Assembly: GCA_017934475.1 (NCBI GenBank)
Contig: JAGBJN010000007.1
Location: forward strand, 11,776 to 75,775
DNA: 64,000 nt
From: Clostridia bacterium
Lineage (GTDB): Bacteria > Bacillota > Clostridia > TANB77 > CAG-508
Direction: 5' to 3'
Below, piece after piece: positions 3,391 through 22,099 of the stretch. Below the pieces are notes generated by a model. It was not told the DNA's origin. It was given only the letters and a program-made list of their open reading frames with translations, and made no database searches. The stretch's first letter is position 1. Each line of letters begins with the position of its first letter. Both the position numbers and the translations under genes were made by a program.

Positions 3391-3393
3391 ATA

Positions 3394-5263: not shown

Positions 5264-5326
5264 TGGATGTGGCTAACCAAATAAGTAACTATTTTTAGAA
5301 AATATTAAATAGAAAGAAGAAATATA

Positions 5327-5884
5327 ATGATAGATGTTATTGAAATAACTATAGAAGAATTTGAAAATGATATTTATGATAAATATATAGAATTATTTCC
5401 TGAAGAAGAACAAAGAGAATGGAATAAAATTGTCAAAACATCCAAAAAGGGAATAGAAAAGTTCTATAAAATTATCTACGAAAACAAGACTATTGGATTT
5501 TTCTTACTTGAAAAAATAAATGATGATTATCCTTTTTACATAGACTATTTTTCTATTTATAGGGAATACCAAAATCAAGGATATGGAACTAAAGCTATAA
5601 AAGTTTTATTAAGTAAAATTATAAATAAAAAGGGATTAATTGCTGAAATAGAAACAGAAAGTAAAGATAATCCTATTACTATTAAAAGATTCGAATTTTA
5701 TAAAAGATTAGGATTTAAAAAAATTAAATCAGAATATTTATTATATAATGTTTATTTCACACCAATATTATATAATGATTATAAAGAAATAAATAAAGAA
5801 AAATATGACAAAATATTTTTTGATTATTATGCAATCAATTGTGGGGAAAATGAAGTAAAGCGACATTGTAAAATTATAAAATAA
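5327..5884 (+). CDS. GNAT N-acetyltransferase
   Basis: YIDYFSI..YQNQGYGTK..RFEFYKRLGF. Confidence 0.8.
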   Translation: MIDVIEITIEEFENDIYDKYIELFPEEEQREWNKIVKTSKKGIEKFYKIIYENKTIGFFLLEKINDDYPFYIDYFSIYREYQNQGYGTKAIKVLLSKIINKKGLIAEIETESKDNPITIKRFEFYKRLGFKKIKSEYLLYNVYFTPILYNDYKEINKEKYDKIFFDYYAINCGENEVKRHCKIIK

Positions 5885-5962
5885 AACAAATATAAATTAT
5901 GATAAGTATTTATAAAAAAGATTTAAGATTATTAATAAACCGAAATAAATAGGAGAAAAAAT

Positions 5963-8380
5963 ATGGAAGATAAAAAAGTATATAAATATGATGCATTTAT
6001 AAGTTATAGACATTGTAAATTAGATAAATTTGTTGCAGAGAATTTACATAGAATTTTAGAGACTTATGAATTGCCTAAAAATATTAAAGAAAAATTAAAT
6101 ATAAAATCAAAAACAATAAGAAGAGTTTTTAGAGACCAAGAAGAACTACCTTTATCAAGTAATTTAGAAGATCCAATTATAAGTGCTCTAGAAGATTCAA
6201 AATATCTTATTGTTGTTTGTTCTCCAAGATTAAAAGACTCTTTATGGTGTAAAAAGGAGATAGAAACATTTAAAAAATTAAGAGGAAGAAAAAACATATT
6301 TTGTGTTCTAATTGAAGGTGAGCCAGAAGACTCTTTCCCAGAAGAAGTACTTTTTGATGAACAAGAAGTAACTCTAGAAAATGGAGAGAAAGCAGTAGAA
6401 AGAATAGAAGTAGAACCATTAGCAGCTGATGTAAGAGGTGAAACTGAAAAAGAAGTTCTTAAAAAAATTAAAGAAGAAAAGCTAAGATTAATAGCACCAA
6501 TGTATGGACTAGATTATGATGACTTAAGACAAAGACACAAATTAAGAAGACAAAAAAGAATATTAAATATTTCAATTATTACTGCAATAGCATGTTCTAT
6601 TTTTGCTATATATTCTTTAATAATGCTTATCAAAATAAATAGCCAACAAGATATATTAAAACATCATCAAGCATTAACACTTGCTTCTAAAGCAAATGAA
6701 TATATAAAAGAAGATAATAGATATGAAGCAGTAAAAAATGCGTACCAAGCACTTGTGGAATTTGAAGGAGTTAAAATGCCTTATACTCCAGAAGCGGAAT
6801 ATGCTTTATCAGAAAGTTTAGGAATATATGATATAGGTGCTTCATATAAAGCTGTATCACAAATAAATACCAAAGGAGTTGTTGATTTTGTAAAATCAAG
6901 TCCAAATGGTAAATATGCAGCAGTATATGATGAATCAGAGGAAATAACATTATTTGATACAAATACATTAAATATTATTTTAAAATATAATATAAATAAT
7001 ACGTATACAAATGATAAAATGTTTGGATTTGTAGGTAATGATATATTTGCCTTTATTAATAAAGATAAAAATATAAGTTTAGTTAAAACTGAAACAGGAG
7101 AACTATATACAGAGATAAATAATGAAGGAAGAGGCTTTATTTCATTAAGATGTAGTACAAATGGAGAATATTTAGCATATACAGATTATGAAAAAGTTTA
7201 TATTTATGATGTTAAAGAAAATAAGCAAATAGGTAGTATATCTGAAGAGGACAATTTCTTAAAAGATATATATTTTTCAGAAGATTGTAATTATGTGTTT
7301 GCTGCAACACTAAAAGAAAATTATGATATATATAAAGAAGATAGCATAACTATACATGTTATTGATGCAAAAGAAGGAAAAGAAATAAATAGTATTGATT
7401 TAACAGCAAGTGCCTTTTCAGGGGTAGTAACTAAAGATAATAATGCATACATCCTATTAAATAACAGAGTTGATACAGATGTAAGTATTGTTGTACTATC
7501 ATATGACTATATTAATGGAAATATTAATTGGACAAAGATTATTGAAAAGTCTTGGGGAAAGTTTATAACAAGATCATATGCTGAAAGCACAAATAATATT
7601 GCAATAGTAAACCAAGACAATGTAAATATATTAAATGCTGATAATGGAGAAATAGAAACTACATTTAACACAAGTAGTGAAATTTTGACTATATATACAT
7701 TTACAACTAGTGACTTATATATAACAGTATCAAGTGATGGATCTGTAGATTACATGGATGTAGAAAATAAAAATACTATTGAATATGATGGAAAATATGA
7801 GCTTAATTTAAATGAATATATAGATGTAGAAAAAACAGAAAATGGATTAATATTATTACCATATAATGAAAATAGATTAATAATATATGATGAAAAAGCT
7901 AATAAAGATGCAAAATTAGAAGATATAAGTCTTGATTATCCAAAAAAAGATAATGTTTCAGTTACAGAACAAAAACAGTTAATTGAAGATTATGATATTA
8001 TAAATAAAAATTTAATTAGTAATATTATTTATGATCAAGATAAGAAATTAATATTTGTAAATTATAAAAATGAAGATATTGCAATATATAATGTTGAAAC
8101 AAAAGAACTAATAAAATTATTAAACAATGTAGGAAAGATAAATCATTATTTTGGTAAAGACAAAAATGATAGAATTTATATAGGAGATATATCAGATACA
8201 TATATTCTAGATAAAGATTTCAATAAAGTTGGACATATAAAAAGTTTAAGAAAGTTAGAACAAGATAAAGTTATAATTGCAAATAATAGTAAATTTTATT
8301 CTTTAAAGATATATAATCTAAATGAACTATTAAATGAGGCAAAAGAACTAATTAATAACAAAAATAATGATAATAACTAA
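5963..8380 (+). CDS. TIR domain - transmembrane helix - beta-propeller-like protein
   Basis: YDAFISYRH..VFRD..ALEDSKYLIVVCSP..SLWCKKEI (TIR_2 with Glu); hydrophobic helix at about aa 200-222; WD40-like strands (SPNGKYA, STNGEYLA, FSEDCNYVF). Confidence 0.8.
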   Translation: MEDKKVYKYDAFISYRHCKLDKFVAENLHRILETYELPKNIKEKLNIKSKTIRRVFRDQEELPLSSNLEDPIISALEDSKYLIVVCSPRLKDSLWCKKEIETFKKLRGRKNIFCVLIEGEPEDSFPEEVLFDEQEVTLENGEKAVERIEVEPLAADVRGETEKEVLKKIKEEKLRLIAPMYGLDYDDLRQRHKLRRQKRILNISIITAIACSIFAIYSLIMLIKINSQQDILKHHQALTLASKANEYIKEDNRYEAVKNAYQALVEFEGVKMPYTPEAEYALSESLGIYDIGASYKAVSQINTKGVVDFVKSSPNGKYAAVYDESEEITLFDTNTLNIILKYNINNTYTNDKMFGFVGNDIFAFINKDKNISLVKTETGELYTEINNEGRGFISLRCSTNGEYLAYTDYEKVYIYDVKENKQIGSISEEDNFLKDIYFSEDCNYVFAATLKENYDIYKEDSITIHVIDAKEGKEINSIDLTASAFSGVVTKDNNAYILLNNRVDTDVSIVVLSYDYINGNINWTKIIEKSWGKFITRSYAESTNNIAIVNQDNVNILNADNGEIETTFNTSSEILTIYTFTTSDLYITVSSDGSVDYMDVENKNTIEYDGKYELNLNEYIDVEKTENGLILLPYNENRLIIYDEKANKDAKLEDISLDYPKKDNVSVTEQKQLIEDYDIINKNLISNIIYDQDKKLIFVNYKNEDIAIYNVETKELIKLLNNVGKINHYFGKDKNDRIYIGDISDTYILDKDFNKVGHIKSLRKLEQDKVIIANNSKFYSLKIYNLNELLNEAKELINNKNNDNN

Positions 8381-8452
8381 AAAGTATCAAAAATAACATA
8401 ATATTTGAAACTTAGTAATGATAGTTAAACTTTATAAAAACAGGAGAAATAT

Positions 8453-8518
8453 ATGATAAATGATTTTGATATGCTTATGAAATCATTATCAAATAAAAAA
8501 GGAAAAGAAAATGAATAG
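8453..8518 (+). pseudogene. 21-aa mini-ORF (MINDFDMLMKSLSNKKGKENE) carrying a copy of the RhuM-family gene 3' end
   Basis: 8461-8499 matches 12999-13037 at 38/39 nt in the same reading frame; AGGAG RBS at 8442; overlaps the Nudix ATG at 8511. Confidence 0.6.
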
Positions 8519-9128
8519 TAGGGAAATATTAGAAAAAATAAAAGCACTATCAAAAGAAGAAAAAAGAAAACTTAATTATGATAAATTAAAAGAAATAATG
8601 GAATATATGACTCCAGATGAAATAATAGAATTAAGTAATATAATAGGATATCCAGTATTTACAAGAATGTGTATGGGAGTGTTACAGCATAAATTTGTTT
8701 TATTACAAGATGGAGCTGCTGCAATAATTATTAATAATGAAGGAAAAATATTATTACAAAGTAGAGCAGATAGAGATTTATGGGGATTGCCAGGTGGGTG
8801 TCAGGAACTAGGAGAAAGATTCAAAGACACAATAATTAGAGAAGTCAAAGAAGAGACAAATTTGGATGTTGAAGAAAAAGATTTGGAACTAATTGATATA
8901 GTTTCAGGAAATAGTAGAAGAAATAGTTATCCAAATGGAGATGTTGTAATTAATAATACAGCATTATATTGTATAAGAAAATATTCTGGAGAATTGAGAT
9001 GGGATGAAGAATCAAAAGAGATGAAATTTTTTGATTTAAATAATTTACCTAAAAATCAAAATGATCCAGATTTAATAGAGATATACATGGAATATGAAAA
9101 AAGAAAATCAAAAGATTTTGAAAGATAA
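8511..9128 (+). CDS. Nudix hydrolase
   Basis: Nudix box GGCQELGERFKDTIIREVKEETNL. Confidence 0.85.
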   Translation: MNSREILEKIKALSKEEKRKLNYDKLKEIMEYMTPDEIIELSNIIGYPVFTRMCMGVLQHKFVLLQDGAAAIIINNEGKILLQSRADRDLWGLPGGCQELGERFKDTIIREVKEETNLDVEEKDLELIDIVSGNSRRNSYPNGDVVINNTALYCIRKYSGELRWDEESKEMKFFDLNNLPKNQNDPDLIEIYMEYEKRKSKDFER

Positions 9129-9145
9129 TAACATTAACAGAAAAA

Positions 9146-9280
9146 AAGGAAGTAAGTAATATGGAAGATAAAAAAGAAAAGTTGCCAAGTACAATGATTC
9201 AGTGCGATAAACCAATTTATATAAACATTAACTCAAACCTTTGAAAACACTGGAATTTTTATGTTGAGATTTTTACATTT
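9146..9280 (+). repeat. cassette junction J1 (rbgA-like 5' end | TG 9203-9204 | conserved right arm, type alpha)
   Basis: AAGGAAGT, ATG 9161 MEDKKEKLPSTMIQ-TG|CGATAAACCAATTT..; right arm matches J3 at 65/76 nt. Confidence 0.85.
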
Positions 9281-9328
9281 TTAATAAAAAATAAAATTAA
9301 TAGTTAAAAAAATATAGGAGACTATAAA

Positions 9329-10120
9329 ATGTGGGGAGCAATAATAGGAGATATAGCGGGGTCAATATATGAGTTTAAACAATTAAAAGAAGTAAAATAT
9401 ATAAAGTGTGATGAAATAATTCCAGAAAAAGGTTTTTTTAGTGATGATACAATACTTACAGTTGCAATTGCTAATGCTATTGAAACTGATAGAGATTATG
9501 AAAAATATCTGAAACTATATGCGAAAAAATATGAAAACTATAGACCTGATTTTGAACCATATTTTCGAAGTATTTTTTCACCAGGATTTATAAAATGGGT
9601 AAATGGGCAAAAAGATGGAAATAGCATAGGGAATGGCGCTATGATGAGAATATCACCTGTTGGATATATGTTTGATTCAGAAAAAGAAGTAATCGAAAAT
9701 GTAATACTTGCAACTAAACCATCACATAATTCAGAAGAAGCAATAGAATGTTCAAAAATCATAGCACTTATAATTTATTATGCGAGACAAGGATGGCCAA
9801 AAGATGAAATACTAAAAAAACTTAATATTCAGCTACAATATAAGTCTTTTGAAAAATTCAATGTTACTTGTAAGGAAACTATAGATAATTGTTTATATGC
9901 ATTATTTGCATCTAATAGTTTTGAAGAAAGTATAAAAAGGGTAATATCTTTTGGAGGAGATACAGATACAAATGCTTGTATAGTTGGTTCAATGGCTGAA
10001 GCTATGTATGGAATAAATCCAGTATTAATAGAAGAAGTAAAATTTAAAATACCAAAAGAATTTACAGATATAATAGAAAAAGGATATAAAATAAAAAAGA
10101 TAGAAGATAATGAAAGATAA
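9329..10120 (+). CDS. ADP-ribosylglycohydrolase (DraG/ARH family)
   Basis: GAIIGDIAGS, FSDDT, SIGNGAMMRISP, GGDTDTNACIVG. Confidence 0.9.
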   Translation: MWGAIIGDIAGSIYEFKQLKEVKYIKCDEIIPEKGFFSDDTILTVAIANAIETDRDYEKYLKLYAKKYENYRPDFEPYFRSIFSPGFIKWVNGQKDGNSIGNGAMMRISPVGYMFDSEKEVIENVILATKPSHNSEEAIECSKIIALIIYYARQGWPKDEILKKLNIQLQYKSFEKFNVTCKETIDNCLYALFASNSFEESIKRVISFGGDTDTNACIVGSMAEAMYGINPVLIEEVKFKIPKEFTDIIEKGYKIKKIEDNER

Positions 10121-10130
10121 AAGATAAAAT

Positions 10131-10247
10131 GAAGTGATATAGATGAACGATAATAAAACTAACATTAACTGGGGTATCGGTATTTAAGAAAACCCTGACT
10201 CAATGCATTGAAAATACTTACTTTTTTATGCTTAGATTTTTACACTT
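10131..10247 (+). repeat. cassette junction J2 (TG 10170-10171, right arm type beta)
   Basis: GAAGTGATATAG-ATG 10143 MNDNKTNIN-TG|GGGTATCGGTATTT..; aligns without gaps to the J1, J3 and J4 arms. Confidence 0.9.
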
Positions 10248-10277
10248 TTTTATAAAAAATAAGAGAAAGAGGAAAAA

Positions 10278-11318
10278 ATGAAATATATAGAAAGAACAAG
10301 CAAGTTAATTAAAGATTATTTTAGTATATTATCCCAAAACTATCCAGATTGGCTAGATGAATACATTGAAACAGAAAGAATGTTAAAACAGCAATATATA
10401 AGTGTTACATGTGGTAAGATTTATTCAAAATTATTTAATTATAATGATTATAGCTCATTAGATCATTCAATAGCAGTAGCATTAATAATTTGGAATTTTA
10501 CACATGATAAAAAGCAAACTTTATCAGGATTATTTCATGATATTGCAACACCTGCATTTAAGCATTGTATAGATTTCTTAAATGGTGATTATATGAACCA
10601 AGAATCGACAGAAGAATTGACGAAAACATTAATTAAAGATTCAAAAGACATAATGAAATTACTTGAAAGAGATAATATAGAATTAGATGAAGTTTGTGAC
10701 TATCATATTTATCCAATTGCAGATAATGATACACCAATGCTTTCTGCTGATAGATTAGAATATTCATTATCAAATGATTTAATAGTATTTAAAACAAATA
10801 CACTCGAAGATATTAGAGAAATATATAATGATATAGAAGTTCAAACAAATGAAAATGGAATTATAGAATTAGGTTTCAAAACAAAAAAGATAGCAAGACA
10901 ATTTGTGAAAAATACTTCTAGATTATCAGTAGCTTATCGAGATGATGCAACTAGATTTTATATGCAAGCTATTGCTGATATATTAAGAAAAGTAAGTGAA
11001 GATGGATTAATAAATAAGATAGATTTATACGAATTAAAGGAAAGTGAAGTAATAGATATTATAAAAAAATCAAACTATAGTGAAGCGTTTGAAGAATTAA
11101 TAAATGCAACAAAAGTACATACTTCAACCGAAGAACCAAAAGATGTTTACTATGTTAAGCATGGCGCAAAAGTAAGATATATAGATCCACTATTTAATGG
11201 AAAAAGAATATCTAAAGAATGTAAAATTGCACAAAAAATGATAGAAAAAAATTTATCATATAATATGGACAAGTATGTTTTTTTAGATAAAAGCTTAAAT
11301 ATATTAAATGAAAAATAA
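10278..11318 (+). CDS. HD-domain phosphohydrolase (dNTPase-like superfamily)
   Basis: SSLDHSIAV..GLFHDIATPAFKH..SADRLEY. Confidence 0.8.
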   Translation: MKYIERTSKLIKDYFSILSQNYPDWLDEYIETERMLKQQYISVTCGKIYSKLFNYNDYSSLDHSIAVALIIWNFTHDKKQTLSGLFHDIATPAFKHCIDFLNGDYMNQESTEELTKTLIKDSKDIMKLLERDNIELDEVCDYHIYPIADNDTPMLSADRLEYSLSNDLIVFKTNTLEDIREIYNDIEVQTNENGIIELGFKTKKIARQFVKNTSRLSVAYRDDATRFYMQAIADILRKVSEDGLINKIDLYELKESEVIDIIKKSNYSEAFEELINATKVHTSTEEPKDVYYVKHGAKVRYIDPLFNGKRISKECKIAQKMIEKNLSYNMDKYVFLDKSLNILNEK

Positions 11319-11323
11319 AGCGT

Positions 11324-11440
11324 AAGGAAGTGATATAGATGGAGAATAGTACAAACATTAACTGCGAAAAACCAATTTATAGAAACTTTTACTCAAAGCG
11401 TTGATAATACTGGATTTTTAATATTGAGATTTTTACATTT
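11324..11440 (+). repeat. cassette junction J3 (TG 11363-11364, right arm type alpha)
   Basis: AAGGAAGTGATATAG-ATG 11339 MENSTNIN-TG|CGAAAAACCAATTT.. Confidence 0.9.
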
Positions 11441-11460
11441 TTTATAGAAGGAGAAGAATT

Positions 11461-11898
11461 ATGGAAAATAAATATGAATTTTTTATAGCTGGAAGAAATA
11501 GAAATAAAGAAAATATATTAAAAATATGTGATTTATTTGATAAATATAATATATCTTATTATTGCTTTTTGAAAAATGAAGATAGTTGGGGATATGGAAA
11601 TAAAAATCAAACACAAGAAGAAAAGCAACGAGAATTTGAATCATTAGATTTAAAAAGTGATATTGTATTGAATTTGTTTAATCAAGATTTAGAAGGGGAA
11701 AAGAGTTCAAAAAACTTTTTACTAGTATTACCGGCTGGAAAAGCAGCACATATAGAATCAGGAATAGCATATGGACTAGGAAAAAAATGCTATGCTATTG
11801 GAGAATATGAAGCAACAGATACTTTATATAATATATTTGAAAAAATTTTTGATAATGAAAATCAATTAGAAGAATTTTTAAAAGAGTATAAAGGATAA
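11461..11898 (+). CDS. nucleoside 2-deoxyribosyltransferase-like protein
   Basis: FFIAG..DL..LLVLPAGKAAHIESGIAYGLGK (E-x-G-x-A motif). Confidence 0.6.
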   Translation: MENKYEFFIAGRNRNKENILKICDLFDKYNISYYCFLKNEDSWGYGNKNQTQEEKQREFESLDLKSDIVLNLFNQDLEGEKSSKNFLLVLPAGKAAHIESGIAYGLGKKCYAIGEYEATDTLYNIFEKIFDNENQLEEFLKEYKG

Positions 11899-11912
11899 GC
11901 TTAGATTAGAAT

Positions 11913-12029
11913 AAGGAAGTGATGGAAATGGAGAATAGTACAAACATTAACTGGGGTATCGGCATTTTAGAAAAACCTAGCTAAAAGTATTGGAAACACA
12001 CACTTTCTTAAAAATAGATTATTACATAT
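11913..12029 (+). repeat. cassette junction J4 (TG 11952-11953, right arm type beta)
   Basis: AAGGAAGTGA..ATG 11928 MENSTNIN-TG|GGGTATCGGCATTT..; left 24 nt identical to J3, right arm matches J2 at 56/76 nt. Confidence 0.9.
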
Positions 12030-12057
12030 TTAAGAAAAATATAAAAAGGAGGCAGTT

Positions 12058-13050
12058 ATGGATAATAAAAATGAAGTTTTGATTTATGAAGATAAAGATG
12101 GTATTACAAAAGTAAATGTAACATTCACTGATGAAGATATTTGGCTTACACAAAGTCAATTGGCAGAAATATATAAAACATCTCGTGAAAATATTACAAT
12201 GCATATTTCTAATATTTATAAAGATAATGAATTACCTAAAGATTCAACTTGTAAGAAATTCTTACAAGTTCAAAATGAAGGTGCAAGAAGCGTTAAAAGA
12301 AATATTGACCACTATAATTTAGATATGATAATTGCCTTAGGATATAGAGTTCAATCAGAAATAGCAGTTAGATTTAGAATATGGGCTACTCAAAGATTAC
12401 ACGAATACATACAAAAAGGTTTTACAATGGACGATGAAAGATTAAAACAAGGTGGCAATAGATACTTTAAAGAATTACTACAACGAATTAGAGATATTCG
12501 TTCAAGTGAAAGAAACTTTTATCAACAAGTAACAGATATATATGCAACAAGCATAGATTATGATCCAAGAGCAGATATAACTAAAAAGTTTTTTGCAACA
12601 GTTCAAAACAAACTACACTATGCAGTACATGAACATACAGCAGCAGAATTAATTTATGACAGAGTAGATAATGAAAAAACTTATGTTGGTATGACAAATT
12701 TTAAAGGAGATTATGTTACAATAGATGATGTAAAAATTGCCAAAAACTATTTATCAGAAATTGAATTACAAAGACTAAATTTACTAGTATCACAATTCTT
12801 AGATTTTGCAGAATTACAAGCGTTAGAACAAAGAACAATGAAAATGCAAGATTGGGTAGAAGAATTAGATAATCAAATATTACTTAATAGAAGAAAAATA
12901 TTAGAAGGTAATGGTAAAATATCACATGAAGAGGCAATAGCAAAAGCAGAAAAAGAATTTCAAATATATAGAGAAAGAGAAATGAAAGAATTACAAAGTG
13001 ATTTTGATATGCTTATGAAATCATTACCAAATAAAAATGAAAGTGAGTAA
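12058..13050 (+). CDS. RhuM-family (virulence protein) DNA-binding protein
   Basis: WLTQSQLAEIY..HISNIY..YNLDMIIALGYRV..FRIWAT..KGFTMDDERLK..IRDIRSSE. Confidence 0.85.
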   Translation: MDNKNEVLIYEDKDGITKVNVTFTDEDIWLTQSQLAEIYKTSRENITMHISNIYKDNELPKDSTCKKFLQVQNEGARSVKRNIDHYNLDMIIALGYRVQSEIAVRFRIWATQRLHEYIQKGFTMDDERLKQGGNRYFKELLQRIRDIRSSERNFYQQVTDIYATSIDYDPRADITKKFFATVQNKLHYAVHEHTAAELIYDRVDNEKTYVGMTNFKGDYVTIDDVKIAKNYLSEIELQRLNLLVSQFLDFAELQALEQRTMKMQDWVEELDNQILLNRRKILEGNGKISHEEAIAKAEKEFQIYREREMKELQSDFDMLMKSLPNKNESE

Positions 13051-13059
13051 GAAGTTAAT

Positions 13060-13449
13060 ATGAAAAAAATAATAATTGCTGGTTCTGCAAAGTTTTACAA
13101 AGAAGCACTAGAATTGAAAAAAGAATTAGAAAATATGAACTATAATGTAATAGATTATCCAAGAAATATAAATGCAAACATTGAAGAAGAATATAAACAA
13201 GCATATGAAAGATTTTATGATAGTTTAAATAAAACAGATGATTTAATTTTATTAAATTTAGATAAAAATGGAATAGAAGGTTATATAGGGTATGAATCAT
13301 TTGCAGAATTAAGTAATTTGGTGGTAAAGAAAATACAAGAAGATAATAATCATAAAATATATATCTACAAGATGCCAAGTAAAGAAGTTGGATGTTATGA
13401 TGAAATAAAACATTTCTTAGAACTAGGATATATTGAAATATTTAAATAA
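13060..13449 (+). CDS. hypothetical protein, NDT/flavodoxin-like fold candidate
   Basis: IIIAGS..D.LILLN..GYIGYESFAEL pattern. Confidence 0.45.
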   Translation: MKKIIIAGSAKFYKEALELKKELENMNYNVIDYPRNINANIEEEYKQAYERFYDSLNKTDDLILLNLDKNGIEGYIGYESFAELSNLVVKKIQEDNNHKIYIYKMPSKEVGCYDEIKHFLELGYIEIFK

Positions 13450-13591
13450 AGGAAGTGATAAAATGGCTAACAAAGATAATAATAAAGAAGGGTTTTCTAA
13501 AATGTCGATCAACTGGGATAGTACGAATTATCTAAACACTTCTGAAAAGTATTAGAAAATCAACATTTTTTGAAAATTTTAATCTTCGTGA
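13449..13591 (+). repeat. cassette junction J5 (TG 13514-13515, divergent right arm)
   Basis: AAGGAAGTGA..ATG 13463 MANKDNNKEGFSKMSIN-TG|GGATAG..; AAAGTATTAGAAA in register with J4 AAAGTATTGGAAA. Confidence 0.8.
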
Positions 13592-13641
13592 TTTAATATA
13601 AATTATATAAAATAAATTAGTAATCGAAAAAAGGAGAAGAA

Positions 13642-14181
13642 ATGGATAATTATATAATAATACATGGTAGTTTTGGATCAAAAGACGGAAATTGGTTTCC
13701 ATGGCTAAAAAATGAATTAGAAAAAGATAATAAAGATGTTGTTGTACCACAAATGCCAATTGGAGTAGAAAACCAGAATTTTGAAAATTGGTCCAAAGTG
13801 TTAAATGAATTGAATATAAATCATAATACTACTATAATTGCACATAGTATAGCGCCAATATTTGTATGCAAGTATTTAATTACAAATAAGATTAAAGTTA
13901 AAAAGCTTATATTTGTTTGTGGATTTAATAATTATTTAGGGATAGACAAAGAATTTGATGCAGTTAATGAACCAATGTTTATAGATAATTTTGAAGATAT
14001 AAAAGAATATTGTAACGATATTATTTGCTATTATTCAGATAATGATCCATATGTTAAATTTGAAACAGAAAAAGCATTTGCAGATGCTATTTCAAATAAT
14101 CAGTATGTAATAAAAAATGGTGGACATATAAATACTGAAAGCGGGTATACAAAATTTGAGGAAATATTGAGAGTACTATAG
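13642..14181 (+). CDS. RBBP9/YdeN-family alpha/beta hydrolase
   Basis: IIHG..NWFPWL..IAHSI..SDNDPYV..GGHIN. Confidence 0.85.
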   Translation: MDNYIIIHGSFGSKDGNWFPWLKNELEKDNKDVVVPQMPIGVENQNFENWSKVLNELNINHNTTIIAHSIAPIFVCKYLITNKIKVKKLIFVCGFNNYLGIDKEFDAVNEPMFIDNFEDIKEYCNDIICYYSDNDPYVKFETEKAFADAISNNQYVIKNGGHINTESGYTKFEEILRVL

Positions 14182-14196
14182 AAGGAGGAGAGGTTA

Positions 14197-15021
14197 ATGA
14201 CACTTTTAGCTTCTTGGGCTGCAATTGATACACATGGTACATCATCTGCTTATATTGTTTCTGATAGTAGAATAAGTTGGGGAAATAAAAAAAATTTTGA
14301 TTTTGGGAAAAAAGTATTTGCATCAAAAAAATATCCGGAAATATTTGGATATGCTGGAGATGTTTTATTTCCATCAATAGTCTTATCTCAAATAGTAGAT
14401 ATGATAGATACAGATGTACTATTCAATGAATCTATGAAATGTTCAGAAAAGAATAAGATTGTTTATGAAAAACTTCAGTATTCATTTTCAAAATATCCTG
14501 ATGTATATGGTGATAATCCAATTCAAATTATACATATATCAAGAGATACTATATTTGATAAATATCCAGTTTTTCATCATTATTTATTAACATGGAATAG
14601 AAAATATGGATGGAGCAAAGAAGAAAAAGTGTTTCCAACTAAATCTGGAATTTTGAATGTTTTAGGATCTGGAAAGGAAGAGTTTAATAAAAACTATAAT
14701 GAAAGATATCAACATTGTAGAAACAAATCTACAAGTAGAAATGTTTTTCATTGTTTTATAGATACATTGTATAATATACAGGATACTATGTGCGGAGGGC
14801 CGCCTCAATTGGTAGGAATATACAGAAAACCCAATACAGCTGCACAAAATTATGGAATTGTATATAATCAAAAAAGATTTTTGTTAGGAATGGAAGTTCC
14901 TAAAGAATCTATGTATAATAAAGTTGAATGGCGTAATGAAAATTTTGAATTATGTGATGGAGTATTAAAGAAAAAATTACAAAATGCTTCTAGTCAAAAA
15001 AATTTGATACGTCGAAATTAA
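14197..15021 (+). CDS. hypothetical protein with proteasome-beta/Ntn-hydrolase-like signature
   Basis: N-terminal M-T, SDSR, K..F, GYAG, LGSG, D..CGG motifs in the order seen in HslV, Anbu and proteasome beta subunits. Confidence 0.55.
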   Translation: MTLLASWAAIDTHGTSSAYIVSDSRISWGNKKNFDFGKKVFASKKYPEIFGYAGDVLFPSIVLSQIVDMIDTDVLFNESMKCSEKNKIVYEKLQYSFSKYPDVYGDNPIQIIHISRDTIFDKYPVFHHYLLTWNRKYGWSKEEKVFPTKSGILNVLGSGKEEFNKNYNERYQHCRNKSTSRNVFHCFIDTLYNIQDTMCGGPPQLVGIYRKPNTAAQNYGIVYNQKRFLLGMEVPKESMYNKVEWRNENFELCDGVLKKKLQNASSQKNLIRRN

Positions 15022-15142
15022 TTAAGGCAACTCCCTGGAAGCTATAAAAAGCTGCGAGGTGCTATGTCTATCTGGAGCAAATTGCTCCAGTAGACTACTA
15101 GGGTATTAACATAAAAATAATATAATTAGAAAGAAGGAATAT

Positions 15143-16357
15143 ATGATTAATATAAACAACAAAATTTGGGATAAATTAAGACTTAAAGATGTAGAAAAAT
15201 ATTTAGATACTATAGAAGATGATGAAACATTTTTTATGGAATTTAAGGAAGAAGATATAAGAAATGTACAATTAACAAAAGAAATTTCTGCATTTGCAAA
15301 TTCGTTTGGAGGGTATGTTTTTTTAGGCGTAAACGATTCTAAAAAAATTGTTGGATGTAGTAGCAAGTGGACAGAATTAAGAATAAATACAATAGTATGT
15401 AATGGAATTTCTCCTATTCCACAATTTGATATAAAAAAATTTAAGCTTAAAAATTCAAATACATTATATATTATAAAGGTAGAAGAGGGGGTAAATCCTC
15501 CATATATTACGAATGATGGATATATATATCATAGAGTATCATCTTCATCAGACAGAGTGAAAGATGCAAATACGCTTAATAATTTATACTTGAGAAATCA
15601 GAATAACATAAAAGATGTTGAAAATAAAATATATATTCCAGAAATATCAGGTACAATTCCAAATAATTTGTGCGGTTATGTTGATTTTGGATTTTCTTTA
15701 ATTTCTAAAAATATTGAAAAAACAAAAGAAAAAGTTAGAAAAGCTGATATTGAGAAGATATCAGAAAAATTAAAAGAATATAAACAAAAATATAGTATTT
15801 CAAAAGTAGGATATTCACTATCTATAACTATAGGTGAGCCTATAATGAAAATGGGAGATCAACCAATTTTAACAACTGGAGGACTTTCAAATTTTATGGA
15901 AATACTGCCAGATGGTAGTTTTAGGTGTAGAATAATTATTTGTTCAGAAAATGATAGCAGTATAGCAAATATTTCTTTAATAACTATGATACATTCGTTA
16001 TTTAAAGAAATATATGAAGTAGTATTTGGAAATAATTTTGTTTCGAATTTTATTCAAGCAAAAAAATATGAAAAGCTTACGGTTTTAAAACTGTTTCAAC
16101 CTAAAATAGTAGTAACAGGAGAATCAAAATATGTAGAAAGATTTAACAAGTTATTTAATGATCATATTATAAAATATGGTAATAATATAATTTCTACTAA
16201 TAATAGAATTCCTTTAAATGGGTTTGTTAATATAGATAAAAGCTTGTTTGATTTAAATAAAGTAAAATTTAATAATGATAACTTATATGGCCAATTGTTT
16301 TATACTAGTTATTTTTTACTTGGATATATTGATGATTTTTATATAGATAATGATTAA
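15143..16357 (+). CDS. AlbA_2 (Schlafen-like) domain protein
   Basis: ETFFMEFKE..KEISAFANSFGGYVFLGVND..PPY..YHRV. Confidence 0.8.
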   Translation: MININNKIWDKLRLKDVEKYLDTIEDDETFFMEFKEEDIRNVQLTKEISAFANSFGGYVFLGVNDSKKIVGCSSKWTELRINTIVCNGISPIPQFDIKKFKLKNSNTLYIIKVEEGVNPPYITNDGYIYHRVSSSSDRVKDANTLNNLYLRNQNNIKDVENKIYIPEISGTIPNNLCGYVDFGFSLISKNIEKTKEKVRKADIEKISEKLKEYKQKYSISKVGYSLSITIGEPIMKMGDQPILTTGGLSNFMEILPDGSFRCRIIICSENDSSIANISLITMIHSLFKEIYEVVFGNNFVSNFIQAKKYEKLTVLKLFQPKIVVTGESKYVERFNKLFNDHIIKYGNNIISTNNRIPLNGFVNIDKSLFDLNKVKFNNDNLYGQLFYTSYFLLGYIDDFYIDND

Positions 16358-16366
16358 GGAGTTTAA

Positions 16367-17572
16367 ATGGGATATAATGTAGCAGCATATTTGAGATTAT
16401 CAAAAGAAGATAATGAAAATATGGAATCAAATAGTATAATTAATCAAAGAGAATTAATAGAACAATATATTAGAAGTAAAAGTGATTTACAATTAGTAGA
16501 TTACTATATTGATGATGGGTATAGTGGTACTAATTTTAATAGACCAGGATTTAGAAGATTATTACAAGATATGAAAAATAAAAAGATTAATTGTATAATT
16601 GTAAAAGATTTATCAAGATTTGCAAGAAGTCATATAGAAGCGGATATGTATTTTGAAAATATCTTTCCTGCCTTGAATATTAGATTTATATCTGTGATAG
16701 AAAATATAGATAGTTTTGAAAATCCAGATTCAATGGACAACCTTATTGTTCCATTTAAAAACTTATTAAATGATGCTTATGCAAAAGATATATCTAAAAA
16801 GGTAAGAAGTGCATTATTAACTAAAAGATTAAATGGAGAATTTATTGGAACTTCTGCTACATATGGATATTTAAAAGATCCAAAAGATAAACATAAATTA
16901 ATAATTGATAAAGTTGCGTCAAAATATGTTATTCAAATATTTGATAGTGCGAAGAAAGGAAAAACTGCAAGTGAAATAGCAAATGAGTTAAATAAAAGTG
17001 ATGTATTAACACCATATACATATAAAGTCAAAAATGATAATATTGGAGTAGATAAAAAGTGGAATGCCAAAATGATTAATGTAATACTTCAAAATAGAGT
17101 ATACATTGGCGAATTAATTCAAGGTAAAAAGAAGGTAGAAAATTATCGTACACATAAACTGGTTTCAACCAATAAAGATGAATGGATAATAACTGAAAAT
17201 CACCATGAGCCAATTATATCTAAAGAAGATTTTGATAATGTTCAAGAAATAATTAAAAATAATAAATGTGCTAGAAGTAATAAAGAAAAAGATTTATTTT
17301 ATAGTTTTTTGAAGTGTGCAGATTGTGGAAGTGCATTCACATTAAGAAAAGTTAAAAATTATGAATACTATCATTGTACGTCGTATGTAAGAAATGGCTC
17401 ATGTACAAACCATTCTATAAGAAAAGATAAACTAGTTGGATTAGTAATTGAAGAACTAAATAAAAAGTTTAAAAGAAATAAAATTAATGTTTTAACAAGA
17501 GATATTTTATTAAAAAATATAAATAGTATCATTATATTTCAAAATGGAGAAGTTACAATAAATTTCAAATAA
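16367..17572 (+). CDS. large serine recombinase (resolvase + recombinase + zinc ribbon), short C-terminus
   Basis: AAYLRLS (catalytic Ser12), DDGYSGTNFNRPGF, VKDLSRFAR, YGY, HEPIIS, CADCG..C..C. Confidence 0.95.
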   Translation: MGYNVAAYLRLSKEDNENMESNSIINQRELIEQYIRSKSDLQLVDYYIDDGYSGTNFNRPGFRRLLQDMKNKKINCIIVKDLSRFARSHIEADMYFENIFPALNIRFISVIENIDSFENPDSMDNLIVPFKNLLNDAYAKDISKKVRSALLTKRLNGEFIGTSATYGYLKDPKDKHKLIIDKVASKYVIQIFDSAKKGKTASEIANELNKSDVLTPYTYKVKNDNIGVDKKWNAKMINVILQNRVYIGELIQGKKKVENYRTHKLVSTNKDEWIITENHHEPIISKEDFDNVQEIIKNNKCARSNKEKDLFYSFLKCADCGSAFTLRKVKNYEYYHCTSYVRNGSCTNHSIRKDKLVGLVIEELNKKFKRNKINVLTRDILLKNINSIIIFQNGEVTINFK

Positions 17573-17650
17573 AGGAGTGAATATAGATGGAGAAAGAACA
17601 AGAAAATAGTTATCACAAAATCAACCTTAACTGGTATCCAGGACATATGG
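17572..17650 (+). other. attR-like site: element-supplied rbgA RBS and N-terminus | TG | rbgA body
   Basis: AAGGAGTGAATATAG-ATG MEKEQENSYHKINLN-TG|GTATCCAGGACAT; same layout as the J1-J5 left arms. Confidence 0.75.
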
Positions 17651-18507
17651 CAAAAACTAAAAAACAAATAATAGAAGATTTGAAGTTAATAGATATAGTT
17701 GTAGAAATATTAGATGCAAGAATACCAAAGTCTAGTAGAAATCCTGATTTGGCTGTATGGACAAAAGGAAAGAAAAAGATAATAGTGTTAAATAAATATG
17801 ATTTAGCAGATGAGAAAGAAAATAAAAAATGGATTTCATATTTTCAAAAACAAGGGATGTCTGTTGTACTTACTAATTCTGTTTCAGGTGATGGAATAAA
17901 TAATGTAATAAAAGAAATAGAAAAAGTTGGTGAAGAAAATAAGACAAACTTTGCTCAAAAAGGTAGAACAGGTAGAGCATTAAGAGTAATGGTAACAGGA
18001 ATTCCTAATGTAGGTAAATCTTCTTTTATAAATAGAATAACAAAGAAAACATCAGCTGGTGTTGGAAATAAACCAGGCTTTACAAAACAAAAACAATGGA
18101 TAAGAGTTAATGAAAAGATAGATTTAATGGATACTCCAGGTATTTTATGGCCTAAATTAGAACCAGAAGAAGTTGCGATTAATTTAGCTATAACTGGTAC
18201 AATAAAAGACGAGATAATTGAAAAGATTGAGGTAGCATATTATTTACTAAAATATTTACTAGAAAATAATAGAGAAGAACTTTGCAACAGATATTCTTTA
18301 AAAATAGAAGATATTGATGAAATATTAAGTAATGAGAATCAAATGGAAAATGAAAATATAATGGAAGTATTATATTTAATAGGTAAAAAGAGAGGTGCTC
18401 TTGTATCAGGTGGACAAGTTGATGAAGACAAGGTTGCAAATCTTTTACTAGATGAATTTAGAAGCGGAAAACTTGGAAAAATAACTATTGAGAAAGTTGG
18501 AGATTAA
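17587..18507 (+). CDS. rbgA: ribosome biogenesis GTPase RbgA (YlqF)
   Basis: NWYPGHMAK, DARIP.SSRNP, NKYD, GIPNVGKSS, DTPG. Confidence 0.97.
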   Translation: MEKEQENSYHKINLNWYPGHMAKTKKQIIEDLKLIDIVVEILDARIPKSSRNPDLAVWTKGKKKIIVLNKYDLADEKENKKWISYFQKQGMSVVLTNSVSGDGINNVIKEIEKVGEENKTNFAQKGRTGRALRVMVTGIPNVGKSSFINRITKKTSAGVGNKPGFTKQKQWIRVNEKIDLMDTPGILWPKLEPEEVAINLAITGTIKDEIIEKIEVAYYLLKYLLENNREELCNRYSLKIEDIDEILSNENQMENENIMEVLYLIGKKRGALVSGGQVDEDKVANLLLDEFRSGKLGKITIEKVGD

Positions 18508-18914
18508 TGGAAGAATTAATAGAAAGAAAAAAGGATATATCAGAAGTAAAACTAATGCCACCTCTAGTATGGGCTTATGTTGGTGATAATGTATATGAAT
18601 TATTTATAAGAACATATCTTGTAAATAATTCAAAAATGAATCCACATAAACTACATGTAGAGGCTATTAAGTATGTTAAGGCACAAGCACAAGCAGAAAT
18701 ATTAGAAGAACTACAAGATTTTTTAACTGATGAAGAAAAAGATATAGTAAGAAGAGGAAGAAATGCTGAAAATCATCATCTTCCTAAAAATGCAAATATA
18801 GCAGATTATTCTCATGCAACAGCATTTGAAGCATTAATTGGTTATTTATATTTAACAAAACAAGATGAAAGATTAAAAGAAATATTTAATAAAATAAAGG
18901 AAATAAAAAAATAA
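18507..18914 (+). CDS. mrnC: Mini-ribonuclease III
   Basis: AYVGDNVYELFIR, YVKAQAQA, RRGRN, ATAFEALIGYLY. Confidence 0.93.
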   Translation: MEELIERKKDISEVKLMPPLVWAYVGDNVYELFIRTYLVNNSKMNPHKLHVEAIKYVKAQAQAEILEELQDFLTDEEKDIVRRGRNAENHHLPKNANIADYSHATAFEALIGYLYLTKQDERLKEIFNKIKEIKK

Positions 18915-18915
18915 A

Positions 18916-19668
18916 TTGGAAAGATATATTGATATATATAATAAAACAGAAAACTGCAATATAAAAGCAAAGATGTTCTATGATGATAAAAATAAAATTG
19001 AAAATGTCTTTGTTTTTTGTCATGGATTTTGTAGTGGAAAAGGAAGTAATTCAGTACAAGTAGTTGCAAATCGATTATTAGAATTAGGATATACATCTAT
19101 ATCCTTTGATTTCCCTGCACATATTGATAGTGAACAAAAGGAAGATAAACTAACAGTAAATGTTTGTGTTTCATACATTAATTCTGTTTTAGAATATATA
19201 AAAGAAACATATGGAAATAACGTAAAAATATCATTTTATGCAATAAGTTTTGGAGCATATATTTTAATGAATAAATTAATAGGGGATAATAATGAATATC
19301 AAAATATTATTTTAAGATCACCTGCATTTAATATGAAGGACATTTTAGTAAATTGTCTATTAAAAGACTCTTTTGAGAATTATAAAAATAATGGTATAGC
19401 AAAAGCTGGACATGAAGGAAAAATAGAAGTACCATATTCATTTTATGAAGATTTAATAAAGCATAATTTATATGAAATATATAAAGAAAAAAGAAAAATA
19501 TTAATTATACAAGGAAAACAAGATGATACTGCTTTAATTGAAGATACATATAGATTTATAAGTAATAGGAAAGAAATCGAATTAATTGAATTAGATGGTG
19601 TTAAACATCATATGAGTCCAGAAGAAATAAAAGAATCTGTTGAAATAATGATAAATAAATTAAAGTAA
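18916..19668 (+). CDS. alpha/beta hydrolase
   Basis: FCHGF, FDF.AH, AISFG, IIQG.QD, GVKH; TTG start. Confidence 0.75.
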   Translation: MERYIDIYNKTENCNIKAKMFYDDKNKIENVFVFCHGFCSGKGSNSVQVVANRLLELGYTSISFDFPAHIDSEQKEDKLTVNVCVSYINSVLEYIKETYGNNVKISFYAISFGAYILMNKLIGDNNEYQNIILRSPAFNMKDILVNCLLKDSFENYKNNGIAKAGHEGKIEVPYSFYEDLIKHNLYEIYKEKRKILIIQGKQDDTALIEDTYRFISNRKEIELIELDGVKHHMSPEEIKESVEIMINKLK

Positions 19669-19702
19669 AAAATATGTAAAAAATAGTGAGGTGTTACATA
19701 GT

Positions 19703-20818
19703 ATGGATAATAGAATAAATAAACTAGCTTCAAATTTATTAAAACATTCAGTAAAATTGCAAAAAGGTGAAAACATTTTAATAGAAATGTTAGGAACAGA
19801 TTGTTCAGATTTAGCTGATGAATTAATTAAACAAGCAAAAGAAATTGGAGCAAGCACAGAAATAACAATAACAGATTATAAAAAACTAAAAGAATTTTTA
19901 TTAGTTTGTAGTGAAGAAGAGTTAAAAGAATATGCTGAAACTGATTTAGAAAAGATGAAAAAAGCAGATGCATATATAGGAATTAGATCAGCTAATCCAA
20001 GAGAACTAGATGGTATACCTAAAGAAAAGATGGAAATGTATAATAAACTTTATCAAATGCCAGTACATTTTGAAGAAAGAGTAAAAAATACAAAATGGTG
20101 TATTTTAAGATATCCAAATGAGTGGCTAGCAAAACTTGCTAAAATGAGTTTAGAGGAATTTACTGATTATTTCTATAAAGTATGCACAGTTGATTATGAT
20201 AAAATGGAAAAGGCAATGGATCCTTTAAAAGAATTATTAAGCAATACAAAGAATGTACATATTATAGGACCTGGAACTGATTTAAGGTTTAGTGTTGAAG
20301 GAATACCTGCTGAAAAGTATTATGGAACATTTAATATTCCAGATGGAGAAGTAGCATCATGCCCAACCAAATACAGTGCTAATGGATATATAACATATAA
20401 TACTGAAACAGTATATAATGGGATTACATTTAATAATATTTATTTTGAATTAAAAGACGGGAAAATAATAAAAGCAGAAGCAGGTGAAAAAACAAATGAA
20501 CTAAATGAAATTCTAGATACTGATGAAGGTGCAAGATATATTGGAGAATTTGCATTTGGATTAAATCCATATGTAAAAAACACAATGGGAGATACTCTAT
20601 TTGATGAAAAAGTAGCAGGAAGTTTTCATTTTACACCCGGAACTGCACTAGAAGAAAGTGATAATGGTAATAGATCAAATATTCATTGGGATATAGTTTG
20701 TATACAAACTCCAGAATTTGGTGGAGGAGAAATATACTTTGATGATGTACTAATTAGAAAAGATGGAAGATTTATATTAGAAGAATTAAAAAAATTAAAT
20801 CCAGAAAATTTAATGTAA
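19703..20818 (+). CDS. M29 family aminopeptidase (AmpS-like)
   Basis: NIPDGEV, GEFAFG, TLFDEK..SFH, HWDIV. Confidence 0.9.
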   Translation: MDNRINKLASNLLKHSVKLQKGENILIEMLGTDCSDLADELIKQAKEIGASTEITITDYKKLKEFLLVCSEEELKEYAETDLEKMKKADAYIGIRSANPRELDGIPKEKMEMYNKLYQMPVHFEERVKNTKWCILRYPNEWLAKLAKMSLEEFTDYFYKVCTVDYDKMEKAMDPLKELLSNTKNVHIIGPGTDLRFSVEGIPAEKYYGTFNIPDGEVASCPTKYSANGYITYNTETVYNGITFNNIYFELKDGKIIKAEAGEKTNELNEILDTDEGARYIGEFAFGLNPYVKNTMGDTLFDEKVAGSFHFTPGTALEESDNGNRSNIHWDIVCIQTPEFGGGEIYFDDVLIRKDGRFILEELKKLNPENLM

Positions 20819-20849
20819 AAAAGAACTTTTCATAAGAAAAGTTCTTTTT
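20816..20849. terminator. bidirectional terminator, duplicated at 21845-21876
   Basis: AAAGAACTTTTC-ATAA-GAAAAGTTCTTT. Confidence 0.8.
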
Positions 20850-20857
20850 GTTAAGGG

Positions 20858-21700
20858 TTAACAATATTTATCTAATACTTTTGTACTCTCATCATTTTCT
20901 TTTTCTAATTGTTTCAGGCTTTTCTTTGGTGTAGGTAATTCTTCAGGCATAGTTCCTCCAAGTTTTTTAATAGTATTTCTAACAGCTTTTCCAACTTCAT
21001 GATGAGTAATGCAAGCTTTATTTTCTGTGTTTATTTTATCTCTTTTTAATTTAGATTCAGTTTGAGTTATACGGAATAGGTTAGCAGCTAATTCTTCGCT
21101 ACACATGTTGTCTAAAATATCTTCTCTATATCTTAGACCTTTTCTTTTTGCAATATCATCAGCAGTTTCTCCATTATATAATCCCTTATAACCTTCATTA
21201 TGAAACTTATCAAAGTTTTTAACACCTGCATTTCTTGCTGCAATATTTAGTGAATAATTACCTTTCTTTGTAAGATTTCTTTGATAGAATCGTTTTTCAT
21301 CTTCTGTAAGCATACTGTATTCTTTTTCTGTAAGTTCTTGCTTTCTAGTTTGTACTGCAAAATATGTTTGAGCTAGGGCAATTACTTTTTTTCTTGAATC
21401 ACCATTTTGAGCAATTAAGTAACATGCGTAACGAGTTAGTTTGTAATCTTTTATAATTTGTTCTCTACCTTTACCAGAAATTATTGGCTTGTCGGAGCCG
21501 ACAAAACAATCAAGTACATTTATACCACTGTTTTCACAAGCATCCATTGCTTTTGAAATTACACCTTCAAATTTTCTCCATTCAGAATATTGAAGTATCT
21601 TTTGTAATTCTCTTGCATACCAAAATTCTTTTCCTTCTTCATCTGTGTGTTTAATACTTTCAAAATCATTTGTGTAATTTGTTTCTAATTCTTTTTTCAT
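20858..21700 (-). CDS. dinD: DNA damage-inducible protein D family (BRO-N domain)
   Basis: FESIKH..EFWYAREL..LTRYACYLIAQNGDSRK..AQTYFAVQTR..GGTMPEELP. Confidence 0.88.
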   Translation of the reverse strand: MKKELETNYTNDFESIKHTDEEGKEFWYARELQKILQYSEWRKFEGVISKAMDACENSGINVLDCFVGSDKPIISGKGREQIIKDYKLTRYACYLIAQNGDSRKKVIALAQTYFAVQTRKQELTEKEYSMLTEDEKRFYQRNLTKKGNYSLNIAARNAGVKNFDKFHNEGYKGLYNGETADDIAKRKGLRYREDILDNMCSEELAANLFRITQTESKLKRDKINTENKACITHHEVGKAVRNTIKKLGGTMPEELPTPKKSLKQLEKENDESTKVLDKYC

Positions 21701-21844
21701 AAGAACCACTCCTTTATAATAGATTAGTTCTTACTACATTTATTGGTATATTATATATTACATTTATTATTACTTTTGAACTTATGTTTGTATTTTATCA
21801 TCTTGATATTTTATTGTCAAGTAAAACTTTACTATATATAAAAA

Positions 21845-21876
21845 TAAAAAAGAACTTTTCTTTTGAAAAGTTCTTT
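21845..21876. terminator. terminator downstream of tRNA-Glu
   Basis: AAAGAACTTTTC-TTTT-GAAAAGTTCTTT. Confidence 0.8.
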
Positions 21877-21880
21877 GAAT

Positions 21881-21955
21881 TGGTGACCCCTACGGGAATC
21901 GAACCCATGATTCAGCCTTGAGAGGGCTGCGTCTTAACCGCTTGACCAAGGGGCC
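21881..21955 (-). tRNA. tRNA-Glu (anticodon CTC)
   Basis: reverse complement GGCCCCTTGGTCAAGCGGTTAAGACGCAGCC-CTCTCAA-GGCTG..GGTTCGATTCC..ACCA forms a cloverleaf with encoded CCA. Confidence 0.95.
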
Positions 21956-22099
21956 ATATTTAATGCTTTTTAATAATAACATTTTTTTATTATTCTGTCA
22001 ATGATTATTATAGTAAAAAAATAAACAAATTTTGCCAAAACACTTGTATTTTAAAGAAAAAGTGTGTATAATATTACAAGTATACAAAATGAACTTAAG

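Follow-up and report, generated by a model that had tools for sequence, protein, structure and literature searches.

In phage serine integrases a coiled coil is needed for the synapsis of attP with attB, and it blocks the reaction of attL with attR until a recombination directionality factor (RDF) acts. TndX and TnpX perform both excision and insertion by themselves. Here we describe a large serine recombinase of only 401 amino acids (aa) in which the coiled coil, about 100 residues long, is absent. Its gene lies directly upstream of rbgA, the gene for ribosome biogenesis GTPase A, in a stretch of 64,000 nucleotides (nt) from a Clostridia bacterium (GenBank assembly GCA_017934475.1, contig JAGBJN010000007.1). 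We call the whole stretch the window: it corresponds to C9:11776-75775 of a genome (G000) of 1.54 Mb which is 86% complete. Positions refer to the window, unless they are preceded by C9.

By sequence the closest characterised relatives of the protein are TndX and TnpX (Tn5397 and Tn4451, from clostridia and enterococci), whose elements are not known to be specific for rbgA. The product of genes annotated as tndX on Enterococcus plasmids is 38.6% identical to it over residues 5–360 (E 7e-79), but the alignment stops at residue 360, before the end of the zinc-ribbon domain of our protein. Matches from the phage and plasmid collections are without exception less than 60% identical, and none of the 24 listed reaches the C-terminus; the furthest ends at residue 386.

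A second system to be compared is found in staphylococci: the recombinases CcrA, CcrB and CcrC and the staphylococcal cassette chromosome (SCC) which they serve at rlmH. There too a large serine recombinase goes with a cassette chromosome, which adjoins the end of a housekeeping gene related to the ribosome, and SCC elements may stand in tandem with direct repeats between them. The target is different: here the element enters the 5' end of rbgA and replaces the start of this gene. CcrB is the best NCBIfam match of our protein, with 114 bits against a cut-off of 900 (72.7 against 900 for CcrC), so that the protein is not a Ccr; the CcrB profile has 542 positions and our protein matches at 8–369 only. 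In SCCmec the Ccr recombinases accept many pairings of sites and may lack an RDF; RDFs themselves have no conserved family (PMC12286644).

The phage integrases LI/A118, phiC31, Bxb1 and SPbeta have the same three-domain fold, on which a model of our protein can be overlaid. According to a 2013 paper, the coiled-coil helices of these enzymes are predicted to have similar lengths. When the coiled coil is removed from the LI integrase (LI Int-deltaCC), excision from attL and attR reaches 62%, against 0 for the wild type, and integration is 0.97, against 35 for the wild type (PMC5499577). In another assay LI Int-deltaCC had no intermolecular activity on any pairing and was moderately efficient in excision (PMC3783163). 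Our natural protein resembles this laboratory construct. What sets it apart from this construct and from the phage integrases is that it lost the coiled coil in nature and that the loss is conserved and under selection.

Two more systems share features of the locus. Streptococcal integrative and conjugative elements (ICEs) also target the 5' end of rbgA (PMC4701971): same gene, same end. However they are large conjugative elements with tyrosine integrases, while here we find a serine recombinase and cassettes of 0.6–4 kb. Integrons are similar in having a co-oriented array of small, promoter-poor cassettes beside one resident recombinase; they differ in that it is a tyrosine recombinase acting on folded attC sites, instead of a serine recombinase and double-stranded hybrid sites derived from the 5' end of a gene. 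The large serine recombinase family was already known, and so was the 5' end of rbgA as a target of tyrosine integrases. In the openly accessible literature we have found no description of a natural large serine recombinase which lacks the coiled coil.

Absence of the coiled coil

The preliminary description of this DNA, made from its letters, reported an open reading frame (ORF) of 401 aa with a zinc ribbon and apparently without the coiled-coil domain. Both statements hold. The gene and its parts are the following:

16367..17572, + strand: gene of the large serine recombinase, 401 aa, without coiled coil (ORF with three Pfam domains)
16379..16840, + strand: resolvase-type catalytic domain, residues 5–158, nucleophile S12 (PF00239, E 5.9e-22)
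16919..17263, + strand: Recombinase domain, residues 185–299 (PF07508, E 5.2e-22)
17297..17461, + strand: Zn_ribbon_recom domain, residues 311–365, with C317, C320, C337 and C346 (PF13408, E 6.9e-15)
17474..17482, + strand: residues 370–372, the site of the coiled-coil insert of about 100 residues in long relatives (alignment gap; loop in the model)
17498..17566, + strand: C-terminal helix 378–384 and beta-hairpin 385–400, which follow the coiled coil in long relatives (alignment and model)

At an E value of 0.01 or better Pfam gives only Resolvase, Recombinase and Zn_ribbon_recom for this protein; there is no match to a tyrosine recombinase. The closest solved chain by sequence is the catalytic domain of TnpX (2mhc, E 1.1e-25), followed by the SPbeta integrase (E 2.4e-16, residues 4–388 against 14–392). 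Homology and fold make it a large serine recombinase of the TnpX/TndX branch. From the last histidine of the zinc ribbon to the end of the protein there are 52 residues only.

We have compared it with its relatives in an alignment (A3) of 150 sequences: the protein itself, 40 close homologues with 395–420 aa, 11 short cluster representatives and 98 with 505–581 aa. No row departs from S12, D81, R84 and R87, and R10 is kept in at least 90% of them; in the zinc ribbon C317 and C320 are invariant, while C337, C346 and H349 are at least 90% conserved, as is I388 in the hairpin. Our protein has a single large gap, of 106+14 columns, between residues 370 and 372, a position at which the 98 longer relatives have about 100 extra residues. 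The spacing from H349 to I388 is bimodal: 31–57 residues in 52 rows, mostly 38, against 106–149 in the other 98. The insert measures 93–119 residues in 97 long rows, and the same range of extra residues is found in the close long relatives (510–580 aa), where our protein has a loop. These inserts are rich in E and K (12.6% each), L (10%) and also I; they are poor in P (0.8%) and G (2.1%). Their position and composition, together with published structures, indicate that they are probably coiled coils. The last 25 residues of our protein, LTRDILLKNINSIIIF..VTINFK, correspond to the helix and hairpin located after the insert in the long relatives.

A first AlphaFold2 model, based on 15 aligned sequences, was poor, with a predicted local distance difference test (pLDDT) of 57.4. 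It was replaced by a run with the 150 sequences, which has a mean pLDDT of 85.3 and scores of 83–92 in the blocks covering residues 311–401. In the C-terminal part of the model a helix of 15 residues (353–367) is followed by a loop (368–377), a helix of 7 residues (378–384) and a hairpin with strands 385–390 and 396–400. There is no long helical hairpin anywhere in the model. It overlays three solved integrases end to end:

SPbeta integrase, 9dxh_A: Z 21.3, 374 of 535 residues aligned, model residues 1–401
Bxb1 integrase, 9iu2_A: Z 18.6, 367 of 486 residues aligned, model residues 3–401
LI integrase, C-terminal region, 4kis_A (134–452): Z 13.7, root-mean-square deviation 3.2, 219 residues aligned, model residues 144–401

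The unaligned remainder of each solved target probably includes its coiled coil. A sequence comparison of a long relative (G175b) with solved structures matched its N-terminal domains only and did not cover the insert region. The inserts of the 97 long relatives have just two weak matches in the whole genome (E 0.002 and 0.005), both on other contigs. The hallmark architecture of phage-type serine integrases, a coiled coil embedded in the zinc-ribbon domain, is missing in this protein. It also lacks what full-length members of the TnpX/TndX branch have after the zinc ribbon, an insert of about 100 residues or more.

A conserved short lineage

The short form might have been an inactive internal deletion among close homologues of full length. 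This is not what we find. In a word-indexed protein search 7217 proteins reached E 0.001 or better; among the 119 others listed, 79 have 395–420 aa and are 52–94% identical to our protein. Short proteins of the same length extend down to about 41–45% identity. The ratio of non-synonymous to synonymous substitution (dN/dS) of the recombinase is 0.13–0.19 against its orthologues in two genomes of the same genus, G208 and G214; for rbgA itself the value is 0.19. Because of these lengths, the invariant key residues and the low dN/dS, the sequences support a conserved lineage under purifying selection. A protein of 516 aa (P0115) looked like a close relative of full length: it is actually a short form with a second resolvase domain and was set aside.

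Most of the 150 proteins listed in a search of cluster representatives have 505–581 aa, and their match to our protein ends near residue 365–370. About twenty of them end 48–91 residues past H349 with the terminal hairpin intact. We have studied how the two forms are related with a FastTree tree of the shared core in 146 rows, after the removal of ten fragments or fusions; 11 rows carry no label. Our protein falls in a group of 11 short rows, with support 93. Nine other short rows are dispersed among long ones, for example P0213, which is found beside the long P0244. Parsimony needs 10 changes between short and long forms, and at least four are forced by well-supported branches. By this tree the loss of the coiled coil is recurrent among the relatives, and the coil-less homologues do not form a single clade, always adjoining rbgA, for which the preliminary description had proposed to look.

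A quick IQ-TREE search with 41 rows, including proteins read from genomes, places all recombinases adjacent to rbgA in one group of 20 rows (support 68; 91 for a subset of 18 rows). This group mixes short forms (G000, G208, G214, G096 and G045) and long ones (G175b with P0125, G188 with P0148). Its 16 short rows form one side of a branch which has a support of only 16; the data are compatible with a single loss of the coiled coil inside the lineage linked to rbgA.

The array of hybrid sites at rbgA

Only 14 nt separate the end of the recombinase gene from the start of rbgA. The features of the locus are:

9129..9328, + strand: array repeat 1 (CAGTGC at 9200–9205; E 5.7e-27)
10121..10277, + strand: array repeat 2 (AACTGG at 10167–10172; E 2e-33)
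11319..11460, + strand: array repeat 3 (AACTGC at 11360–11365; E 2e-31)
11899..12057, + strand: array repeat 4 (AACTGG at 11949–11954; E 2.5e-30)
13450..13641, + strand: hybrid site, left bound of the putative recombinase unit (AACTGG at 13511–13516; nhmmer E 8.7e-21)
13642..16357, + strand: cargo of the recombinase unit: serine hydrolase, 274 aa ORF without family, Schlafen/AlbA_2 protein (Pfam)
17573..17660, + strand: junction where the live rbgA begins (ribosome-binding site, the ATG with 14 codons linked to the element, AACTGG at 17629–17634 and the conserved rbgA body after it)
17587..18507, + strand: target gene rbgA, for ribosome biogenesis GTPase A (GTPase domains, among them MMR_HSR1)

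Between 9.1 and 13.6 kb of the window the cassettes are separated by five repeats of 140–200 nt, which share a common profile (E 2e-33 to 9e-21). This profile has no match in the whole genome beyond the five repeats. A blastn search of the window with short words from the 5' end of rbgA yields nothing above noise, the DNA being rich in AT. Each repeat is built in the same way: a ribosome-binding site, ATG and a few codons lead to AACTG(G/C), or CAGTGC in the copy at 9129, and a shared non-coding arm follows. The repeats are 63–83% identical to one another.

The live start of rbgA also has AACTGG (17629–17634). The 80 nt from the start are 95–98% identical in four recombinase-bearing genomes, against 72–80% deeper in the gene. 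When 28 rbgA loci of the genus are compared, the part after AACTGG does not vary, while before it there are discrete, unrelated types. The left parts of several array repeats are of types which serve as live rbgA starts in other species; for the repeat at 13450 the left arm corresponds to the live 5' end of rbgA in another species (L060). Inverted, this arm is found again in the right arms of the repeats at 10121 and 11899: read outward from the TG, 19–20 of 26 positions coincide, against 7.8 ± 2.4 in the null distribution, with a maximum of 18 in 20,000 draws. By their sequence these sites appear to be built like attL-type hybrids, with an rbgA-like arm and an element arm; they are similar but not identical. 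The evidence supports that the recombinase gene sits in an array of direct, similar sites of hybrid type at the 5' end of rbgA.

A common type of long, lysine-rich 5' extension is found upstream of the hexamer in the rbgA loci L040, L042, L043, L052 and L061. Possibly the end of a cassette located upstream has been fused to these genes in frame.

Position of the recombinase in other genomes

In seven of the genus genomes that lack the recombinase, rbgA is directly preceded by a homologue of the conserved gene at C9:3622-4149. Therefore the DNA between these two points in our genome, about 25 kb, is an island, which reaches 7.6 kb upstream of the start of the window and takes in C9:4150-11775 and 1–16357. 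The corresponding island has 6.7 kb in G208 and 7.2 kb in G214. Its left border (C9:4150-4230) shows no remnant of the rbgA 5' end.

The recombinase or a homologue is directly upstream of rbgA in five of the 29 genomes of the genus which have rbgA: G000, G208 (84% identical to our protein), G214 (87%), G096 (45%) and G211 (frameshifted). In six of the other 24 the contig stops less than 1 kb upstream of rbgA (L040, L046, L049, L052, L057 and L064); contig ends of this kind would be expected if a variable island with repeats breaks the assemblies. Outside the genus a short copy abuts rbgA in G045, and the contig of G040 stops too early to show what adjoins its copy. A further short copy, in G074, lies 1.9 kb from rbgA, with an ORF of 342 aa and a repeat between them. 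Homologues adjoin rbgA in seven other genomes (G096, G045, G175, G188, G208, G214 and G211), and those of G175 and G188 are long. It follows that short forms are not always at rbgA, nor are they the only ones found there.

The G175 locus (L034, G175:C12:15000-34999, 25–16985) has two coil-bearing serine recombinases in tandem, of 553 and 532 aa, directly upstream of rbgA. Upstream of them there are a restriction-modification protein of Eco57I/MmeI type (1207 aa), a MazF toxin and a DUF6870 protein.

Signs of exchange

The recombinases of G000, G208 and G214 stand beside different cargo: the genes between the last repeat and the recombinase are not the same in the three genomes. Between G000 and G096 (L069) the ORF of the serine hydrolase (13641–14180 in the window) has a nucleotide identity of 91.3%, with homology stopping at the ORF borders, while the recombinases of these two genomes are only 45% identical. 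In G096 this ORF alone makes up a cassette, and a repeat with AACTGC comes after it; in our genome it belongs to a unit with three genes. The synonymous divergence of the recombinase in distant hosts is half that of rbgA (0.48–0.58 against 1.07–1.12), while in close hosts it is larger (0.375 against 0.274). Such values indicate that the recombinase and rbgA have uncoupled histories.

Metagenome contigs of related strains were also compared with positions 4000–20000 of the window, at a likeness of at least 90%. They come from Logan assemblies of four ruminant-gut runs belonging to four studies. A contig of 4122 nt in X7 spans exactly 13520–17633 from its first to its last letter, and one in X6 likewise begins at 13520. 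In X7 there is also a contig in which 10166 is connected to 13511 by the AACTGG that both places share. In an X6 contig position 17633 is followed by 25 letters similar to the cassette arm and then by 11390.

Proposed mechanism and its alternatives

The 401 aa recombinase would be the resident enzyme of a small unit, at about 13.5–17.63 kb, inserted in the 5' end of rbgA. The right end of the unit would give rbgA a new ribosome-binding site, a start codon and its first codons, with a crossover at or beside the TG of AACTGG. Upstream there is an array of cassettes with one or two genes and no recombinase, separated by sites with the same build: an rbgA-5'-like arm, AACTG(G/C) and the common cassette arm. 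As its autoinhibitory coiled coil is gone, the enzyme would recombine any two sites of the array without an RDF; it would need no discrimination between attP and attB, because the sites of the array are of one kind. In this way cassettes would be deleted and circularised, which are the easy reactions, and less efficiently re-inserted, in a manner similar to Ccr with SCC at rlmH.

On balance we lean towards the central part of this proposal: an active recombinase which would have no need of an RDF and would recombine the similar sites of an SCC-like array. Its full form is less likely than not: the coil-less lineage alone would run an array comparable to those of integrons and SCC, would recombine any pair of sites in both directions without an RDF, mobilise cassettes in trans and re-supply the rbgA start, with a synapsis due to the catalytic domains alone. 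The preliminary description had also proposed recombination in either direction without an RDF. The loss of directionality in the LI deletions agrees with it as far as excision is concerned; for integration, which is very poor in the same proteins, it does not (PMC5499577, PMC3783163).

Several observations weigh against the proposal. Since LI Int-deltaCC is so poor in intermolecular integration, a reaction in either direction is unsafe to assume for insertion, which would be doubtful for a coil-less enzyme unless its synapsis is strengthened elsewhere. The recombinase abuts rbgA in all five genomes of the genus which have the gene, and also in G045; the simple insertion of cassettes at the rbgA junction would not keep it there. 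The half-sites are heterogeneous: left arms other than that of the 13450 site belong to a separate type and match the right arms in 6–11 of 26 positions, a chance level, so that the sites can be called equivalent only approximately. The repeat profile finds nothing in the left 16 kb of the island. Among the relatives, the G074 copy has a nonsense codon and the G211 copy a frameshift. Finally, the metagenome contigs document that other junctions exist at the predicted points, which is not the same as observing recombination, and the many short joints in the same table of contigs are likely noise.

The best of the alternatives, although rather unlikely in our view, limits the enzyme to excision or resolution. 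It would act only on sites of one molecule, deleting or inverting DNA within the array, while coil-bearing relatives on incoming elements would insert new cassettes at the rbgA site. This agrees with the behaviour of the LI integrase without coiled coil, which excises and hardly integrates (PMC5499577 and PMC3783163). Coil-bearing recombinases of the same lineage are indeed found directly upstream of rbgA, in G175 (the protein of 532 aa, 53% identical to ours) and in G188, and the joint of 10166 with 13511 in X7 is a product of the deletion type. On the other hand, we have detected a single recombinase of this kind in the 86%-complete genome. Several species have the unit, whose history does not follow that of rbgA, and this would require insertion; the X6 contig links the right end of the unit to a cassette arm, as expected for a circle or for re-insertion.

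We consider it improbable that the recombinase is a relic, inactive or being lost, beside an array which is a frozen record of insertions by ancestors of full length. The two damaged relatives, the moderate identity of the array repeats and the recurrence of short forms beside long sisters, as in P0213 and P0244, would fit such a history. It is opposed by a dN/dS like that of rbgA, by catalytic residues and zinc ligands which are invariant or nearly so in 150 sequences, by a lineage which keeps its short length down to the lowest identities given above, and by the strong conservation of the junction region across species.

It is very improbable that directionality is kept by another device, either a partner protein in the unit, for which the ORF at 14197–15021 (274 aa, without family in Pfam, NCBIfam and PADLOC) would be the candidate, or a different spacing of the half-site in the rbgA body, where by eye the distance of the motif AAAC seems about 2 nt greater than in the cassette arms. 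Next to the recombinase G000, G208 and G214 have different cargo ORFs, and a dedicated partner there is therefore unlikely.

Other features of the region

In positions 1–17572 there are 20 ORFs of at least 100 aa, all on the + strand except for one overlapping frame. The accessory genes of the island in the window are small and on the + strand: they code for GNAT, PNP, HIT and HD proteins, a TIR-WD40 protein (805 aa), NUDIX, an ADP-ribosylglycohydrolase, RhuM (PADLOC PDC-S05) and Schlafen/AlbA_2. Several of them are defence-like. The 21 upstream neighbour ORFs scanned include no relaxase or replication gene, as already noticed in the preliminary description. Between 8300 and 17700 promoter-like sites are at chance level (77 found, 76.0 ± 7.5 expected), and there are no terminator-like sites (1.0 expected); neither figure is informative.

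A remnant of the RhuM 3' end is found at 8445–8515, just upstream of the NUDIX gene; it is 84% identical to 12996–13053. In the loci L063–L065, from three other species, an intact RhuM 3' end lies directly before the rbgA start. Beyond rbgA there is an inverted repeat of 30 nt (20820–20849 and 21847–21876, 97% complementary) which encloses 997 nt. This segment carries the only gene of the region on the - strand, coding for a BRO-N protein (20858–21709). The repeat adjoins a tRNA-Glu gene (21881–21955), and the GC skew falls to 0.04 in 20001–22000.

Meaning of the coil-less recombinase

The current model of directionality rests on the coiled coil, which joins attP and attB and locks attL and attR until an RDF is present. 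An enzyme which lacks it naturally and under selection is a ready-made test of this model. Its coil-bearing relatives are found at the same target gene, and their comparison would reveal the share of the coiled coil in synapsis and in direction. With 401 residues and possibly no RDF, the recombinase is also a candidate for a compact tool. For the bacteria which carry it, the locus represents a way of building variable accessory islands, in part defence-like, at an essential gene while the translation of this gene is kept.

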